Sequence record: OR062947.1
Direction: 5' to 3' (one strand)
DNA from: Escherichia phage 348Ecol098PP
Length of the DNA stretch: 64,000 nucleotides
A program made the position numbers and the translations under genes. The notes below the pieces were generated by a model. That model was not told the origin of the DNA and made no database searches. It was given only the letters and a program-made list of their open reading frames with translations. This document shows, in pieces, positions 6,708-60,200 of the stretch (positions within the stretch are counted from its first letter, which is position 1; each line of letters opens with the position of its first letter).

Positions 6708-6736
6708 CAAAAATGGGAGACCGAAGTCTCCCAAAA
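6708..6736. terminator. Bidirectional terminator between ORF 6435-6704 (+) and gene 23 (-)
   Basis: GGGAGAC-CGAA-GTCTCCC flanked by A-rich runs. Confidence 0.6.
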
Positions 6737-6756
6737 TAAGATTTAATCAATTAAGA

Positions 6757-8325
6757 TTAGATGCCTTTTACATATACACGGCGGAAGTAAGCGTTCTTAC
6801 CAAGGCTGTTCAGGATAGACGGCATACCGGACTGGATGCGAGCACCTGGAGCCTGCAGGGAACTTTCAGCAAACGGGTTAACACCGATACCGTAACGAGT
6901 TTTAAAGCCCATTACCGGCTGGAAGTTCTTAGGATCGGAACCACGCAGTGGGGTAAGTGCAACGTAAGGAGCATAGTAAATACCTGCATCCATTTCGTTA
7001 GCGCCTTTGTAACCAACGGTGAAGTAATCCTGTTTAGCATACTGGTCGATGTATACGCGGTATTTACCACCAAGTACACCGGCAAATACAGACTTAGTAG
7101 TGTCGGTATTAAAACCAGAAGCCAGACCCTGTGCAGCATAAGAAATACCAGTATCAACTGAAGCCAGTACGTTAACTACGTTACGGGAAGCGATAATGAA
7201 GTTACCTTCACCACGACCGGTTTGACGAGCAATTTCAACTGCTTCTTTATCAATCTGGAACAACAGAGATTTAAAGCTTTCACCGGCCCAACGAGCACCA
7301 CGGATATCAATCGGGTCCTGGAAGTCAAATACACCAGCTTTAGAACCCGGAGTCAGGGTCATACCAGATTTACCAACCTGTGCCGAGTAGTTAATCCAAT
7401 CAACAACTTCACGGTTGATTTCTAGCATAATTTCTGTAGCCAGAATACCGCTCAGTTCAGCATCAGCATCCATACCGTGTACTGCACGGAGGTCTTGTGC
7501 CAATTCGATGGAGTAAGCAGCTTTCAGCTGGCGAGATTTAGCTTCGATAACTTGTTTATCGATACGGAAGCCCATTTCGTTCCACGGGTTGTCGGTAGAA
7601 CCGTTGAAACCTTCCTGGAGTTCAGCGATAGAAGTAGCCATACCTTCAGCGATTTCTACCAGTGCACCAGCTTCCATTTGTTTCTTAACTTCTGCATCTA
7701 ATTTAGCTGCATCAGTTGCACCAGAATCAAGTGTTACGATAGCAGAAGCTTGCAGATATACAGTACCAGTTTCTTGGAAGAAGTGAGTATAGATATCACC
7801 TACAACAGTAGTAGTGTCAGCAGCCAGAGCTGGGAATTTCTTAGCAGCACCCTGTCCAGAGAACATCGCGTCTGGGGCATACATCGGATGGAAAGCTTCT
7901 TTAGCGCCAGCAGCGATAGGGTCTTTACCATATACTGCACGGAGAGCAAATACCTGACCGGTAGGGCTGTTCATAGGCTGAACACCACAAATATCAAAAG
8001 CGATCAGATTAGGAATAGCACGACGAACCATACCCATAACTGCCGGCCCAATTTGGGTTACTGCACCAGAGGTTTGACCTGCTGCGATGTTCTGAGCATT
8101 ATAACCGTGGTCACCACCAATTTCAGCTTCGGTCAAGAAAGAACCAAATGCCTGAGCGATTTTCTCGTCTTTATATTCAGGGGATACTTCGAAATCTTTT
8201 TCCTGGTTTTCGAAGATTTTAGCGATAATAGCCTGCTTGCTATTAGCGATTTCCGGCAGGCCTTCACCTTCCAGCAGTTCTTTCCATTTGTCTACGAGCT
8301 GAGCTTTAGTTTTGATAGTAGTCAT
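6757..8325 (-). CDS. 23: Major capsid protein gp23
   Basis: 522 aa; N-terminal MTTIKTKAQL...GLPEIANSKQAIIAKIFENQEKDF and body closely match remembered T4 gp23. Confidence 0.97.
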   Translation of the reverse strand: MTTIKTKAQLVDKWKELLEGEGLPEIANSKQAIIAKIFENQEKDFEVSPEYKDEKIAQAFGSFLTEAEIGGDHGYNAQNIAAGQTSGAVTQIGPAVMGMVRRAIPNLIAFDICGVQPMNSPTGQVFALRAVYGKDPIAAGAKEAFHPMYAPDAMFSGQGAAKKFPALAADTTTVVGDIYTHFFQETGTVYLQASAIVTLDSGATDAAKLDAEVKKQMEAGALVEIAEGMATSIAELQEGFNGSTDNPWNEMGFRIDKQVIEAKSRQLKAAYSIELAQDLRAVHGMDADAELSGILATEIMLEINREVVDWINYSAQVGKSGMTLTPGSKAGVFDFQDPIDIRGARWAGESFKSLLFQIDKEAVEIARQTGRGEGNFIIASRNVVNVLASVDTGISYAAQGLASGFNTDTTKSVFAGVLGGKYRVYIDQYAKQDYFTVGYKGANEMDAGIYYAPYVALTPLRGSDPKNFQPVMGFKTRYGIGVNPFAESSLQAPGARIQSGMPSILNSLGKNAYFRRVYVKGI

Positions 8326-21128: not shown

Positions 21129-22711
21129 TATTTTACCTTAATGATATAGTTTAAAGAAATATTCCATGGACGAGTTTCATTTCCAATTAATTCTGGACGA
21201 TTCATGGTATATTTAGAGTTACGCTGAGACGCTGGATCAATTTCATATCCTTCGTTAGTAAAATATGAACGGTTATCCCAGTCAAGTCCTTTACGAGTAC
21301 CAACAAAGTTTGAACGACGAGTATTACCAAATGCACCGGAATCGTCATGTTCACCAAAACCACCAGCATGCTTATGATATGACATCTGTTGTTTTTGCAC
21401 TTCACCAACATATCCACCGGTACAACCTACCGCCAGACGAGGCTTACCGAATTGGTCATTACCATTAACATTAGGGTTAGTTAAATGGTTACCACGACCT
21501 GAGCCGCGAACAAATAATCCACGCATATCAGGCAAGCCTGGGTTAGAAGAGCTACCACCATATCGTGTCCCAATTCTAGAAGCATATACCGGACATTCTG
21601 AAGCAGAAACGGTCCCACCGTGGCAGAAGCGCCAATCAGAACTCGGTAAACTATCTGCAGCCCACATTGTAATAGCGCCAACTGGAAGAATTCGGTCTAA
21701 TTCATTTTGAGTCACAATACGATTGCCTTGAATATAACCACCAGTCATATTGACATTACCAGTTATATTAGCTCCACCAGAACCAACCGTCAATGTATTA
21801 TTAATGCGAAGCGTGCCATTAATAGTTTGTCCGCCTCGTTGGTGGATAACATCAGCATTCCAAGCAAGGGCAGAAGAACCATCACCACCTGATTGGCTAC
21901 CAGCTTGTGTAGTTAAACGAACAACTCCACGTAAAGAAGTTGTAGCACCACGCCCGTTTAATGTTGCGCCGGTCACTACAACTGAAGAGTTGTTACTATT
22001 TACTTCAGTCTGTGTCCCTAGTTTAACGACACCTTTATTAGTTTCTGATGCTACTGAATTCATAAAGGTATAAGGTGAAATTGCATAGCCTTCACGCAGG
22101 GTGCCTTGTTGTGCTTGTGCAACTGTAGCTAAACGAACAACACCTGTAATAGATTCGGTGGCGTCACTATTATTTGGAGCAATTTGTGAAATAAGTTTAA
22201 TTGCTAATTGTTGTGTTTTTAACGGGGTCATTGCCGTTGTATCGTCAGAACCAGCTAATGCCGCAGCAGAAGTTGAAATTTTAATTACACCATTTGTTGC
22301 TTCTGTTGACACTTTTGTCTGAAATACATTGTCTATTTTTTGATTCAATTTAAGCGGAGTAATTGACGCATCGTCAATAGTTCCTGTTACTGCTTCATCT
22401 TCAGTAGCATAACGAGTTAAGCCATATTGAGTTTCGGTTGCATTAGGATATTGTAGACGAGCATTCAGTGTTGCCGGAGTAACAGCTTTACTATTATCTA
22501 ATCCATCAATAACTTCTTGTGGAGTAGCTATTTGAATAATTCCTGGTGTAGTAGTTGTTGCTTCCGGTACGCCATTAACACCTGAAGGAGAAATAGCAGC
22601 TAATGCGGCTTGGACATTAGTGACTGTATCTGGAAAATTCGACCCTGTAGGGTCGAATTCAACGTAAATGGATTCGTTTGAAACGTGTTGGTATGTATTG
22701 TTATTACTCAT
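21128..22711 (-). CDS. 12: Short tail fibre gp12
   Basis: 527 aa (same as T4 gp12), synteny. Confidence 0.85.
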
Positions 22712-50836: not shown

Positions 50837-51097
50837 ATGAAAATGTATCAAGAATTTATCGTTGAAGCAGATGCCAAAGGTCCTAAATTTAAAGTTAAAG
50901 CTTTCATTGGTGATGCGGAAGACTTTGGCTCATTAAAACGTAATGGGTATTCTTTCTTAGGTGGCAATGGTAAAGAAATCAACACCTATGCAAAACGTAG
51001 TGAAATTGCTTATGTTGTAGCAAGTCCTAAAGTAGATGTTGACGATATTGGATATGATTTTAACAACTTCGGAATTATTTCTGGCGGTAAAGCTTAA
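50837..51097 (+). CDS. Internal-protein-like, leader MKMYQEFIVE
   Basis: 86 aa; CTS-like leader. Confidence 0.55.
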   Translation: MKMYQEFIVEADAKGPKFKVKAFIGDAEDFGSLKRNGYSFLGGNGKEINTYAKRSEIAYVVASPKVDVDDIGYDFNNFGIISGGKA

Positions 51098-51130: not shown

Positions 51131-51161
51131 TACTCTATCAAAACAAACAAGGAAACAAAAA

Positions 51162-51476
51162 ATGAAAACGTATAAAGAATTTATTGCAGAATCCGCCAAC
51201 CAACGCGTTGAAGGTGGTTATATTTGGATTGAACAAGTTGAGCCACCGAGCCGCACTTCTACAGGTAAATGGAAAATTACTGTTGACGGTCCTGGCGGTA
51301 AACGTAGGACTCTTAAAGAAATTAATGGGTACTATGAAGAAGCTCTTTCGGATGCAGGAACTTACATGATGCAAATCATGATTAAAAACCCTGAAAACCG
51401 TTTTGCAGCTAAAGTCTTCCGTCGTATTGGTAATAAACTTTATGATGCATACTCTAAAAACTTCCCTAAAGAATAA
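51162..51476 (+). CDS. Internal-protein-like, leader MKTYKEFIAE
   Basis: 104 aa; CTS-like leader; early promoter 51101-51130. Confidence 0.6.
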   Translation: MKTYKEFIAESANQRVEGGYIWIEQVEPPSRTSTGKWKITVDGPGGKRRTLKEINGYYEEALSDAGTYMMQIMIKNPENRFAAKVFRRIGNKLYDAYSKNFPKE

Positions 51477-51501
51477 CATAAATTAAAACAATAGGAACAA
51501 A

Positions 51502-51831
51502 ATGAAAACATATCAGGAGTTTATCACTGAAGTTACATTATCTGCGGAACAGAAAGCTGCTATCGAAGAAGGTAAAAATCCCAAAGTAACATATAAAGTA
51601 AATAGTAAAGGCGTTTTTGATGGCTTGGTTCAAGACCCTGAATTGAAAAAAGTTCTTTCTAAAACTAATGCGTACTTTGCTCCTAAATTTAACACAGCCG
51701 GTGTACTTATTGGATTGGATGTATTCAACTCTAAAGGTGTTCTATCTAATGCCTTTGGTTATGCCGCTAACAAAATTACCAAAGCCGCATGGGAATCCAA
51801 TACTAAACAAGCTCAAAAGCCTAGAGTATAA
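51502..51831 (+). CDS. Internal-protein-like, leader MKTYQEFITE
   Basis: 109 aa; CTS-like leader. Confidence 0.6.
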   Translation: MKTYQEFITEVTLSAEQKAAIEEGKNPKVTYKVNSKGVFDGLVQDPELKKVLSKTNAYFAPKFNTAGVLIGLDVFNSKGVLSNAFGYAANKITKAAWESNTKQAQKPRV

Positions 51832-52003: not shown

Positions 52004-52543
52004 ATGAGAACATTTTTAACTGGTCCTTATCTATCCCTGATGAATGCTTTTACACACCATTCTGATGCTAGAGTAGAAGAAATTTGTAAGAATGGTTATG
52101 TCCCACCATTTGAAGACGTACTCAAGCAGTACTGTACACTTCGTTTAGACGGTGGCAGACAATCAGGTAAATCAACCGCAATAACTAATTTTGCTGTTAA
52201 TTGGCTGTATGATGGTGGAACAGTTATTGTTCTTTCTAATACTTCAGCTTATGCTAAAATTTCTGCTGGCAACATTAAAAAAGAATTTTCTCGTTATTCT
52301 AGCGATGATATTCGATTCCGTTTATTTACTGATTCTGTTCGTAGTTTTATTGGCAATGAAGGTTCTAAATTCCGTGGATTAACGCTTTCTCGTATTCTGT
52401 ATATAATTGACGAGCCTATTAAAGCTCCTGATATGGATAAGATTTACAATGTCCACATTAAAACAGTACAGCACTGCTGCAAAAGCAAATATTGCATCGG
52501 CGGTAATGCTCGTCCTCAATTTTTTGTGATTGGAATGCAATGA
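52004..52543 (+). CDS. Small P-loop NTPase
   Basis: 179 aa from MRTFLTG; Walker A GGRQSGKST, Walker B-like ILYIIDEP. Confidence 0.45.
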   Translation: MRTFLTGPYLSLMNAFTHHSDARVEEICKNGYVPPFEDVLKQYCTLRLDGGRQSGKSTAITNFAVNWLYDGGTVIVLSNTSAYAKISAGNIKKEFSRYSSDDIRFRLFTDSVRSFIGNEGSKFRGLTLSRILYIIDEPIKAPDMDKIYNVHIKTVQHCCKSKYCIGGNARPQFFVIGMQ

Positions 52544-52848
52544 TGACCACTATTGAAGTTTTTGAGTATTGTTATAACAGCCCAGTATGCAATAAAAGGG
52601 CTCTTGTAGAAAATTATGAGATTTACCATTTTAAACCTAAACGATATCGTTTGACTAAAGGTCCGTTCGCAGGGCAGCAGGTTCTTTGTACTGCTCCTAA
52701 TGCACGGTTGATGACTAGTATTCCGCATTTCAAAATGGAATTTATTGATGGGCCATTTAAGGGATTAATCACTCAAAGTTTAATGGCGTTTAATTCCGAC
52801 CCATTTTTGATTAAAGAACAATCTTGGATAAATTTATTTTCTAATTGA
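52540..52848 (+). CDS. Hypothetical protein
   Basis: 102 aa, ATGA overlap with upstream. Confidence 0.4.
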   Translation: MMTTIEVFEYCYNSPVCNKRALVENYEIYHFKPKRYRLTKGPFAGQQVLCTAPNARLMTSIPHFKMEFIDGPFKGLITQSLMAFNSDPFLIKEQSWINLFSN

Positions 52849-52854
52849 GGTTAT

Positions 52855-53217
52855 ATGAAAGCATATCAAATTCTTGAAGGTGCACATAAAGGCACTATTT
52901 ATTTTGAAGACGGTACTCAAGCCCGGATTATTGTCTCTAAGACTTTTAAAGAAGACTCTATTGTAGACCCGGAAATTTTCTATGGTTTGAATGCCCGTGA
53001 AATTGAAATTGAACATCAACCTAAAGTTAAAATTGAAGGTGGTCAACATCTGAACGTTAACGTTCTGCGTCGTGAAACTCTAGAAGATGCAGTTAAGCAT
53101 CCGGAAAAATATCCGCAGCTGACCATCCGTGTATCCGGTTATGCAGTTCGCTTTAACTCTCTGACTCCAGAACAGCAGCGCGACGTTATCGCTCGTACCT
53201 TTACTGAGAGTCTATAA
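52855..53217 (+). CDS. Autonomous glycyl-radical cofactor (GrcA/YfiD-like; T4 tk.4/Y06I type)
   Basis: 120 aa; C-terminal ...[60 protein letters not shown] contains RVSGY glycyl-radical motif. Confidence 0.8.
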
Positions 53218-53441
53218 TGGCTAAATTGATTATAGAAGGGTCTGAAGATGTTTTAAAATGTTTTGCCGCCTGGTTTAGTTGCTCAGGCGAGCAATCATTC
53301 ATTGAAGCATTTAGAACGGGTGATATTACTGGAAAATATCCGTCAACCGATATCACTGTACGCGGATATGGTATTAATGAGCCTATCCAATTGGTCGAAT
53401 ATGACCTTGCCACCGATGAGGAAATTCCTTATGTCGATTGA
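53217..53441 (+). CDS. Hypothetical protein
   Basis: 74 aa ORF. Confidence 0.4.
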   Translation: MAKLIIEGSEDVLKCFAAWFSCSGEQSFIEAFRTGDITGKYPSTDITVRGYGINEPIQLVEYDLATDEEIPYVD

Positions 53442-54983: not shown

Positions 54984-55327
54984 CCAAAATGTTGGCTTTA
55001 ATAGTTGGCTTGGTTTCATTTAACGCTCTTGCTAATACTACATATACTGATGTAACGGAGTATACAAACAGAACGGCGTCTGATTATTGTGGTAAAAGTC
55101 AAGAGTGTAAAGTAGATTTTTCACAAAAATTGTTATATGCGTATAAAGACGGAGAAAAAGATGGGGCGTCTAGTAGGTTCAAGGCGTCTACCTTAATTAA
55201 AAGATACTATAAAAAATGGCAAATATTAGAATGCTCGGTGGCGGAACCTAAAGATAAGGCAGCATGCAATTCTATGGTGGACCGTCTAGTTGACTCTTAT
55301 ACTAGAGGACTTGCAGCAAGTGATTAA
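54980..55327 (+). CDS. Predicted exported/periplasmic protein
   Basis: 115 aa; signal peptide MTKMLALIVGLVSFNALA; 4 Cys. Confidence 0.45.
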   Translation: MTKMLALIVGLVSFNALANTTYTDVTEYTNRTASDYCGKSQECKVDFSQKLLYAYKDGEKDGASSRFKASTLIKRYYKKWQILECSVAEPKDKAACNSMVDRLVDSYTRGLAASD

Positions 55328-55784
55328 AAACTATATCAAGGGCGATATTGTCGCCCTGTTTTCTAAAGGTAATAATATTGCTCATGGGTGTAATTGTTTT
55401 CATACAATGGGCGCTGGTGTGGCAGGACAATTAGCAAAGGCTTATCCAAAAATTCTGGAAGCCGATAAACTTCAAACCGAATTCGGAGACGAGTCTAAAC
55501 TCGGGACTTATTCGGTTTATGAAAAATATTTTAAGACCCATAAAGCTTATTGCTTTAATCTTTATACACAGTTTGAGCCGGGACCTAATTTTGAGTACTC
55601 TGCTTTAATGAATTGTATAATAGAATTAAATGAATTCGGAAAGAATAAGATAACAAAGCCTGTAATTTATATGCCAAGAATTGGTGCAGGTATTGGTGGT
55701 GGAAACTGGGACGTCATCGAAGAGATTTTAGATACGTATTCTACTAAACTAGAAATTGTGATTGTTGATTGGGAACCTAAATGA
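55320..55784 (+). CDS. Macro-domain protein (ADP-ribose binding/processing)
   Basis: Macro-like motifs GDIV...IAHGCNC...GAGVAGQLAKA and IGAGIGGG; start uncertain (GTG 55320 or TTG 55290). Confidence 0.5.
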   Translation: MIKNYIKGDIVALFSKGNNIAHGCNCFHTMGAGVAGQLAKAYPKILEADKLQTEFGDESKLGTYSVYEKYFKTHKAYCFNLYTQFEPGPNFEYSALMNCIIELNEFGKNKITKPVIYMPRIGAGIGGGNWDVIEEILDTYSTKLEIVIVDWEPK

Positions 55785-55972: not shown

Positions 55973-56554
55973 ATGGCTAGTTTAATTTTTACATATGCCG
56001 CTATGAACGCTGGTAAGTCTGCTTCATTACTTACTGCCGCACATAACTATAAAGAACGTGGCATGGGTGTATTAGTTCTTAAACCGGCTATTGATACTCG
56101 TGATTCAAAGGGTGAAATAGTCTCTCGTATTGGTATTCGTCAGGATGCCAATATAATTACAAAAGACATGGATATCTTTGAATTCTATAAATGGGCTGCA
56201 GCACAAAAGGATATTCACTGCGTATTTGTTGACGAAGCTCAGTTCTTAACTACTGAAAAGGTGTATCAACTTAGTCGTATTGTTGACGTATACAATGTGC
56301 CAGTAATGGCATATGGACTACGAACAGATTTTAAAGGTAATCTATTTGAAGGTTCTCAAGCATTAATGGCTATTGCCGATAAGCTTGTTGAACTTAAAGG
56401 TGTCTGTCATTGTGGTAAAAAGGCCACAATGGTAGCTAGAGTCACGGAAGATGGACTTCCAATTACAGATGGCAGTCAAATTGAAATTGGTGATACCGAT
56501 AGATATGTGTCATTATGCCGGAAGCATTGGAATGATTTGACAGGGTTGTTATAA
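55973..56554 (+). CDS. tk: Thymidine kinase
   Basis: 193 aa; P-loop AMNAGKSA; C-terminal Cys cluster; size matches T4 Tk. Confidence 0.9.
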   Translation: MASLIFTYAAMNAGKSASLLTAAHNYKERGMGVLVLKPAIDTRDSKGEIVSRIGIRQDANIITKDMDIFEFYKWAAAQKDIHCVFVDEAQFLTTEKVYQLSRIVDVYNVPVMAYGLRTDFKGNLFEGSQALMAIADKLVELKGVCHCGKKATMVARVTEDGLPITDGSQIEIGDTDRYVSLCRKHWNDLTGLL

Positions 56555-59918: not shown

Positions 59919-60200
59919 ATGAAAAAATTAGTAATTGGTTTATTCGCAGTAATGATGGCATTCTCTGTTGGTGCTACCACAGGTGCAGCCGGCGGTAGTG
60001 CAGGAGCTGGTGGTAACCAGTCTTCTGGGCCTTCCAACGGTTCGGTAAATGCATCACATTCTCAGGGTATTGAGAACATTAAATCAAGCTATATTAATAG
60101 CACGGCCGGACAAGCAACTGAAGCATGGTCAAAGGGCCGAGTAGTTACTCGCTCCGTATTCTGTGATATGCCTAATTATGTTGCTAAGTGCGATAAGTAA
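59919..60200 (+). CDS. Small secreted Gly/Ser-rich protein
   Basis: 93 aa; signal peptide MKKLVIGLFAVMMAFSVGA; followed by terminator. Confidence 0.45.
   Translation: MKKLVIGLFAVMMAFSVGATTGAAGGSAGAGGNQSSGPSNGSVNASHSQGIENIKSSYINSTAGQATEAWSKGRVVTRSVFCDMPNYVAKCDK

Follow-up and report, generated by a model that had tools for sequence, protein, structure and literature searches.

The vs.6 gene of a Mosigvirus phage as an apparent mosaic of an old phage-lineage N half and a C half of recent Escherichia origin

GrcA, also known as YfiD, is a spare part for pyruvate formate-lyase (PFL) in E. coli. Residues 61-127 of YfiD reproduce residues 693-759 of PflB, and residues 1-60, which are disordered, are needed to bind the cleaved PFL as well as for efficient activation. 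In passages of PMC8683613 (citing Wagner et al. 2001), E. coli YfiD and the T4 protein Y06I are given as the only two spare-part proteins that have been validated, and it is stated there that PFL-AE installs a glycyl radical on Y06I, and that the activated protein binds oxygen-cleaved PFL, the activity of which is thereby restored. A gene of this kind in another T-even phage raises the following question: how has the DNA of a strictly lytic phage come to be nearly identical to that of its host along one half of a single gene? In this paper, we have addressed this question in the window, i.e. the whole stretch of 64,000 nucleotides (64 kb) of Escherichia phage 348Ecol098PP (OR062947.1), in which a first-pass annotation, made from the sequence alone, had drawn attention to the gene.

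Identity and setting of the gene

The open reading frame (ORF) at 52855..53217 on the plus strand is intact, begins with ATG and encodes a protein of 120 aa, exactly as the first-pass annotation had described it. PHROG 1209 covers this protein over its full length (1-120, E 5.6e-63), the Pfam Gly_radical domain PF01228 is found at aa 59-101 (E 2.2e-18, 67 bits against a cut-off of 22), and the gene, which carries the name vs.6 in the T2 and RB69 records, also occupies the place expected for this family, between vs.7 and vs.5 and upstream of regB. Its surroundings in the window run in the order denV, internal-protein-like ORFs, vs.8, vs.7, vs.6, vs.5, vs.4, vs.3, regB, vs.1, vs, tk.4 and tk, and the synteny vs.8-vs.7-vs.6-vs.5-vs.4-vs.3-regB is common to the window and the AV109, T4-type, T2 and RB69 loci. 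The best whole-gene DNA match is that of the Mosigvirus phage AV109 (98.9% identity); the DNA identity to the T4/T2 vs.6 gene is ~93%, and the protein is 95% identical to T4 Vs.6. On these comparisons, the window is Mosigvirus DNA, and the ORF is the Mosigvirus ortholog of T4 vs.6 (Y06I), i.e. a predicted phage-encoded autonomous glycyl radical cofactor. The T4 protein has the same position (vs.8-vs.7-vs.6-vs.5 ... regB), the same length of 120 aa, an identical C-terminal stretch of 60 aa and a mosaic breakpoint at the same point of grcA, and differs by six amino acids, in the N half of the window protein. The gene has been kept in all six of the early T4-like genomes compared (PMC1524935).

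The T4 counterpart had been given beforehand as tk.4, which turned out to be another gene. The tk.4 ortholog in the window is the macro-domain ORF at 55290-55784 (Pfam Macro, E 2e-6), followed by tk at 55973-56554; the naming in the T2 and RB69 records agrees with this, and Nolan et al. 2006 (PMC1524935) likewise treat the macro-domain ORF as tk.4, distinct from the YfiD-like gene.

A GAGG ribosome-binding site, as read from the sequence, lies at 52847..52850 on the plus strand, 4 nt before the ATG, and overlaps the vs.7 stop codon (52846-52848), and at the other end, in the TAATG at 53215-53219, the TAA stop of vs.6 overlaps the ATG of vs.5 (53217). A sequence scan returned no convincing sigma-70 promoter or terminator beside vs.6 above shuffled expectation, therefore vs.6 probably shares a transcript with vs.8 and vs.7. 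The predicted glycyl radical site is Gly95 in the motif RVSGY (GGT codon at 53137..53139, plus strand), which corresponds to G102 of GrcA and G734 of PflB in alignments to 6owr and to PflB 696-759.

The family is unevenly labelled in the databases. In PHROGs v4, phrog_1209 is labelled as being of unknown function despite the biochemical work on the T4 protein, and the GenBank names for vs.6 vary among hypothetical protein, pyruvate formate-lyase, acetyltransferase and 2-ketobutyrate formate-lyase. Upstream of vs.6, three consecutive small ORFs (50837-51097, 51162-51476 and 51502-51831) start with nearly the same peptides (MKMYQEFIVEA, MKTYKEFIAES and MKTYQEFITEV), which resemble the leader that targets T4 internal proteins to the capsid; a long antisense ORF at 51138-51479 (minus strand), overlapping the second of them, is probably spurious. 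The vs.8-like ORF at 52004-52543 belongs to PHROG 1488 (unknown function), shows weak matches to a terminase large subunit / P-loop family (phrog_2, E 9e-6), and contains a Walker-A-like motif, GGRQSGKS.

Two halves of one gene compared with E. coli grcA

At the protein level, aa 61-120 are 100% identical to residues 68-127 of E. coli GrcA (PDB 6owr, E 1.5e-42), RVSGY included, as the first-pass annotation had stated, and aa 57-120 align to PflB 696-759 with an E value of 2.8e-26. The identity extends to the DNA. Each of the 5,426 complete E. coli genomes has a grcA that agrees with 53033-53217 at 96.2-96.8% of positions, and megablast of the 64-kb window against E. coli genomes gave no match outside this stretch, within which there were also weaker matches to pflB. 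Within this one gene, the DNA identity to grcA jumps sharply at 53033, from a random level to 96-97%. Relative to the K-12-type grcA allele there are seven mismatches in 53033-53217, all of them synonymous (53049, 53073, 53082, 53169, 53208, 53211 and 53214), of which the last three fall in a phage-specific tail. Over the 171 nt of 53035-53205, the tract thus contains four synonymous mismatches to the K-12-type allele (53049, 53073, 53082 and 53169), and three, again all synonymous, to the best E. coli allele. Between the window and E. coli grcA, dS is 2.8 and dN 0.72 in the N half, as compared with 0.17 and 0 in the C half. As donors, pflB (only ~79% identity) and tdcE (~75%) were rejected.

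The gene can accordingly be divided into three parts on the plus strand: an N-terminal half (aa 1-60, 52855..53032), which would be an old phage-lineage, diverged GrcA region; a putative host-derived conversion tract (aa 61-117, 53033..53207), which comprises the glycyl radical domain and is nearly identical to nt 200-374 of E. coli grcA; and a phage-specific 3' tail (codons 118-120 and the stop, 53208..53217), which overlaps the vs.5 start and follows the phage genus.

The composition of the DNA changes along with the identity. The claim that the C-terminal part is GC-richer was borne out: GC rises from 33.9% in the N half to 47.0% in the C half (the mean of the window is 38.0%), and the C half ranks among the richest 1.5% of 183-nt segments across the 64 kb. 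The accompanying claim of host-like codon usage stands for leucine, glutamine and proline (CTG in 4 of 6, CAG in 3 of 4 and CCG in 2 of 3 codons, respectively), but not for the C half overall, which ranks at the 24th percentile for typicality with respect to the codon usage of the phage itself, and in the top 13% for GC3 (0.37 vs 0.22); neither value is an outlier. This typicality is unremarkable because the phage shares with highly expressed E. coli genes a preference for CGT, GGT, GTT and GAA. We have therefore rejected codon usage as a signal of host origin; the real evidence is the direct DNA identity. Local GC is higher than in the vs.6 tract at 6714-8012, 21388-21832 and 59927-59994 (peaks of up to 0.54), and none of these stretches matches E. 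coli DNA.

The N-terminal 60 residues had been regarded as unrelated to GrcA, a view that profile-profile comparison overturns. When the profile of phage N-termini was compared with that of bacterial GrcA N-termini by hhalign, the two aligned with a probability of 96.2% (E 2e-9, 61 columns, 28% identity). The motifs IQI, ARxxxxK, EDxxV and REVxxExxPxV are common to both, the GrcA alignment runs back to residue 21 in phmmer, and the NCBIfam GrcA equivalog model TIGR04365 aligns over aa 18-120. The score of this model, 158.5 bits, is below the curated cut-off of 170 (E. coli GrcA scores 234) because the N half has diverged. Thus, with respect to the GrcA/YfiD family (TIGR04365, IPR011140), the window protein is small (about 14 kDa) and stand-alone, has a C-terminal Gly_radical domain and a PflB/GrcA-like C-terminus, and has a GrcA-type, strongly diverged N half, and it falls short of the equivalog cut-off. 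By these sequence criteria it is a full-length GrcA homolog, the two halves of which are of very different age relative to the host gene. It shares with E. coli GrcA (YfiD, 6owr) residues 68-127, the radical glycine, the fold elements that mimic PflB and a detectably homologous N half; on the other hand, its N half is only ~28% identical and 7 residues shorter, lacks the conserved NSFWLLD and the cysteines (RCxC), and the gene lies in a phage early/middle gene cluster rather than between ung and eamB. Phage GrcA homologs on seven IMG/VR contigs (L118-L123, L129) have N halves much closer to bacterial GrcA (SIWLIE..NKARCLVAK), and bridge the phage and bacterial N-termini.

Origin of the host-like tract

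The mosaic is not peculiar to this phage, for which the first-pass annotation had suggested a recent event of its own. E. coli grcA is matched at 95-98.9% in ~650 T-even-type GenBank records (Escherichia, Shigella and Yersinia phages), and among the matches listed, the match starts at grcA nt 200 in every record. This bears directly on the possibility that host reads were mis-assembled into the phage genome, to which we assign a negligible probability: only the high host identity speaks for it, whereas the same in-frame mosaic with a phage-specific tail recurs in ~650 independently sequenced phage genomes, and there are private synonymous changes in the tract. Counted over the last 183 nt, the differences from the K-12-type allele number 2 in OES_C-2, 3 in T4, 4 in RB69, 5 in T2, 7 in both the window and AV109, and 10 in Killian; the host genes of Citrobacter and Salmonella differ from the phages at 14-21 and 30-35 sites, respectively. 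Many E. coli strains match a T4 clone at 98.9%, with both mismatches in the last two codons, up to which the T4 tract is identical to E. coli alleles; the window tract, in comparison, has 3-4 private synonymous changes. The first-pass annotation had weighed its reading against two outcomes, a C-terminus no closer to the host than the T4 homolog is, which is indeed what we found (2-3 mismatches in T4 vs 6-7 in the window), and the lack of a compositional discontinuity, which is contradicted by the GC step.

In a neighbour-joining tree of host and phage sequences, the C halves of Tequatrovirus and Mosigvirus nest inside the genus Escherichia. The third-position identity to E. coli grcA is 0.88 for the window and 0.97 for T4, as compared with 0.43-0.47 for other E. 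coli phages (Krischvirus ECD7 and T5-like HildyBeyeler) and 0.5-0.77 for other enterobacterial hosts. The ECD7 and T5-like controls, at ~0.45, rule out convergence that results from infecting E. coli. The same values weigh on the view that a complete host grcA was captured in ancient times and inherited vertically, the C half being kept by purifying selection and shared codon preference, and the N half drifting. The 97-100% conservation of the GrcA C-terminal protein across Enterobacterales, and the preference for CGT, GGT, GTT and GAA in both the phage and highly expressed E. coli genes, are in line with this view. However, it leaves unexplained why the synonymous sites should be nearly identical specifically to E. 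coli, and it also conflicts with the presence of Klebsiella alleles in Klebsiella phages (see below) and with the host orthologs, which diverge normally at synonymous sites: for the C half of host grcA, dS is 0.40 between E. coli and Citrobacter and 1.1 between E. coli and Salmonella, hence these sites are not frozen in the hosts. We therefore consider ancient capture highly improbable. Furthermore, the two halves of host grcA diverge in parallel along the host phylogeny, and the composition of the tract is host-like, which together indicate a host-to-phage direction and rule out the reverse. The comparisons thus support the view that vs.6 is a mosaic at the DNA level, with an N half of an old phage lineage and a C half that appears to be of recent Escherichia origin. 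The earlier notion of a recent host-derived segment joined to a phage-specific N-terminus holds as far as the mosaic and the host origin are concerned, but not in its implication that the N-terminus is foreign to GrcA, as both halves are GrcA-homologous.

Whether the tract was acquired once or repeatedly can be approached by comparing phage genera. Between the window and a T4-type phage, dS is 0.70 for vs.8, 0.98 for vs.7, 0.42 for the vs.6 N half, 0.15 for the vs.6 C half, 1.9 for vs.5, 1.7 for vs.4 and 2.3 for regB, and the vs.6 C half is the most conserved segment in 3.3 kb. Among 5 Mosigvirus and 8 Tequatrovirus sequences, the N half (180 nt) contains 12 sites fixed between the genera and 16 polymorphic sites, the tract (171 nt) 0 fixed and 19 polymorphic, and the last 12 nt 1 fixed and 3 polymorphic; Fisher's test on fixed vs polymorphic sites in the N half and the tract gives p of about 5e-4 to 6e-4. 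The consensus of the phage tracts is an E. coli allele. As there are no fixed differences in the tract and its consensus is a host allele, the tract was homogenised towards the host after the two genera split, and the same two facts are indirect evidence that points to an independent acquisition in the genus of the window itself. The N half and the 3' tail, on the other hand, follow the phage phylogeny, the tail codon being CTA in Mosigvirus, and TTG in most Tequatrovirus and CTG in 2 of 9. Within genera the tract varies more than the N half: the window and RB69 differ at 1 site in the N half and 5 in the C half, and Killian and T4 at 3 and 9. These counts come from a small sample of 13-14 E. 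coli-phage sequences, 3 Jiaodavirus sequences and 8 Klebsiella alleles, and in none of the sampled phages are the tract and tail together 100% identical to a host allele.

These data can be set against a single ancestral capture of E. coli grcA that then spread among Tequatrovirus and Mosigvirus by phage-phage recombination, with no ongoing conversion by the host in E. coli phages. Such a history would fit the uniform breakpoint at grcA nt 200 among the matches listed, the tail changes at codons 58-59 that are common to all E. coli phages, the greater conservation of the entire vs.6 between genera than of its neighbour genes, and the star-like phylogeny of the tract, in which the changes are mostly private. 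The uniform breakpoint is equally expected under conversion, though, because the homology ends there, and the phage consensus is the host allele itself, with no shared derived site; the excess of within-genus variation in the tract over the N half, and the acquisitions of Jiaodavirus from different Klebsiella alleles, also speak against it. We thus regard a single capture as unlikely.

The phages of Klebsiella provide an independent case. Against 80 species representatives that lacked alleles of the K. pneumoniae complex, the Jiaodavirus tracts appeared 88-90% host-like. The chromosomal grcA genes of this complex fall into two allele groups, 7 fixed synonymous sites apart in the tract, which we labelled from the names of protein clusters as group A (K. 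variicola-like) and group B (K. pneumoniae). The Jiaodavirus phage KEN37 is 4 of 171 sites away from group A and 11-13 from group B, and has the group A state at all 7 diagnostic sites. Phage 15882-5, which was isolated on K. pneumoniae, is 11-13 of 171 sites away from group A and about 5-7 from group B, with the group B state at 6 of the 7 sites; and a viral contig (L126) is 12-14 of 171 sites from group A and 5-6 from group B, with the group B state at 7 of 7. All three are 21-22 sites from E. coli, and one phage-specific tail is common to them. Since related Jiaodavirus phages carry tracts of different host alleles, several independent host-to-phage conversions must have taken place. At codon 44 of its C half, 15882-5 shows the group A state, at one of the 7 diagnostic sites in an otherwise group B tract, which a conversion that was shorter or patchy, or a host allele outside the sample, could explain.

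Conversion is not universal, because Slopekvirus, Pseudotevenvirus, Karamvirus, Krischvirus and T5-like phages have older, drifted C halves, the third-position identity of which is near 0.5 to any sampled host. In Klebsiella phage Miro and Cronobacter phage leE, the C-half protein is 100% identical to the variant of the phage's own host type (LLDAVE in Klebsiella and LEDAVK in Cronobacter), while at the DNA level the C half reaches only 80-84% identity with the closest of the sampled host alleles and about 80% with the phage's own host genus; old conversions that have drifted at synonymous sites, or selection for host-matching residues, would both account for this.

Two other phages deserve mention with regard to the donor. 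The Killian tract (301-480) has 7 internal differences from E. coli, yet its N half is 3 nt from that of T4; several of its tract variants match states seen in other enterobacteria, and the donor may be an unsampled Escherichia-like allele. The tract of Yersinia phage fPS-90 is 98.4% identical to E. coli grcA, and the sampled Yersinia grcA genes are far more divergent; if the tract records recent hosts, the natural host of fPS-90 may be Escherichia.

Proposed function, mechanism and relation to known systems

Taken together, we consider it probable that the gene is a vs.6 ortholog that serves as a spare part for PFL and has been recurrently overwritten by host grcA, so that the mosaic would be due to recurrent host-to-phage gene conversion and not to one event in the phage of the window. 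The function is attributed to the window protein because of its 95% identity to the T4 protein and its identical C half. According to this model, the host activase PflA would install a radical on Gly95, and the C-terminal domain, the protein sequence of which is identical to that of host GrcA, would stand in for the oxygen-cleaved part of host PFL. The diverged N half probably binds damaged PFL and promotes activation, by analogy with YfiD. The flux through PFL, i.e. the production of acetyl-CoA and formate, and with it ATP, may thereby be sustained during infection under the microaerobic conditions of the gut, once the phage has turned off the expression of host genes. Formate is also the reductant for class III ribonucleotide reductases, and a link of vs.6 to the anaerobic supply of dNTPs via formate is plausible; nrdD and nrdG are absent from the 64-kb window.

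A different role of the protein, in which it does not repair PFL for the benefit of the phage, but either rescues NrdD, the anaerobic ribonucleotide reductase of the phage itself, or serves as a decoy by titrating PflA or damaged PFL, appears quite improbable to us. A role in nucleotide metabolism was suggested by Nolan et al. 2006 from the Gly_radical match (PMC1524935), and the half of the protein on which binding and activation depend in YfiD, the N half, is strongly diverged. However, the C half has the sequence of GrcA and can be aligned to PflB 696-759 (E 3e-26), and not to a sequence of the NrdD type; the N-half motifs are conserved between the phage and bacterial proteins; and T4 Y06I, in the passages of PMC8683613 that cite Wagner et al. 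2001, is activated by PFL-AE and reconstitutes cleaved PFL.

As for the mechanism of the PFL spare part's renewal, the comparisons indicate that the radical-domain tract of ~175 nt is repeatedly overwritten by the grcA of the current host via homologous gene conversion. The left limit of the conversion would be set by the end of phage-host homology at codon 60/61, near the domain boundary in the YfiD structure, and the right limit by the phage-specific tail overlapping the vs.5 start. The homologous recombination machinery of the phage would act on fragments of degraded host DNA, selection may favour an exact fit to host PflB and PflA, and a host-like tract would in turn make further conversion easier. 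The tract of the window would be of E. coli origin and have gained 3-4 private synonymous changes since then; direct conversion from E. coli and inheritance from another converted phage are equally compatible with it. T-even phages degrade host DNA and carry modified cytosines, and recombination between them and the host would for these reasons be expected to be rare, which is a point against recurrent conversion.

The closest parallel is psbA of cyanophages, in which intragenic recombination between host and phage and a patchy GC content have been reported (PMC3900582). Both are auxiliary metabolic genes of T4-like phages in which host segments have recombined into the phage copy with a local step in GC, and vs.6 likewise shows a step in host identity with a matching step in GC, as well as, in Jiaodavirus, different host alleles in related phages. 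On the other hand, the vs.6 tract is very short (~175 nt), its limits are set by the end of homology, and it is nearly identical to the allele of the current host species, in enterobacterial T-even phages that degrade host DNA.

The vs.6 gene and its biochemical role were already known; what is new here is the recurrent, host-allele-specific pattern of conversion. In the literature searched, the coverage of which is incomplete, we found no description of the identity of vs.6 to grcA at the DNA level or of its tracking of host alleles. The pattern would mean that recombination between strictly lytic T-even phages and the host chromosome is frequent enough for a 175-nt tract to stay matched to the host allele, even to different alleles of Klebsiella, and it hints at selection for an exact match to the PFL repair part of the host. 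We think it likely, more specifically, that the tract is continuously refreshed from the chromosome of the current host in the strictly lytic Tequatrovirus, Mosigvirus and Jiaodavirus, that it would act as a natural barcode of the species or allele of the last long-term host, and that recombination from host to lytic phage would be measurable over these ~175 nt, with the fit to PflB and PflA possibly under selection. The tract would therefore offer a tractable system to measure host-to-phage gene conversion, and a possible marker of the recent host of a phage. It also has a practical side: phage grcA was proposed in a 2026 paper as a core-gene qPCR marker for Straboviridae coliphages (PMC12845203), and primers placed in the conserved half of vs.6 could amplify host grcA too, given the 96-99% identity between them.
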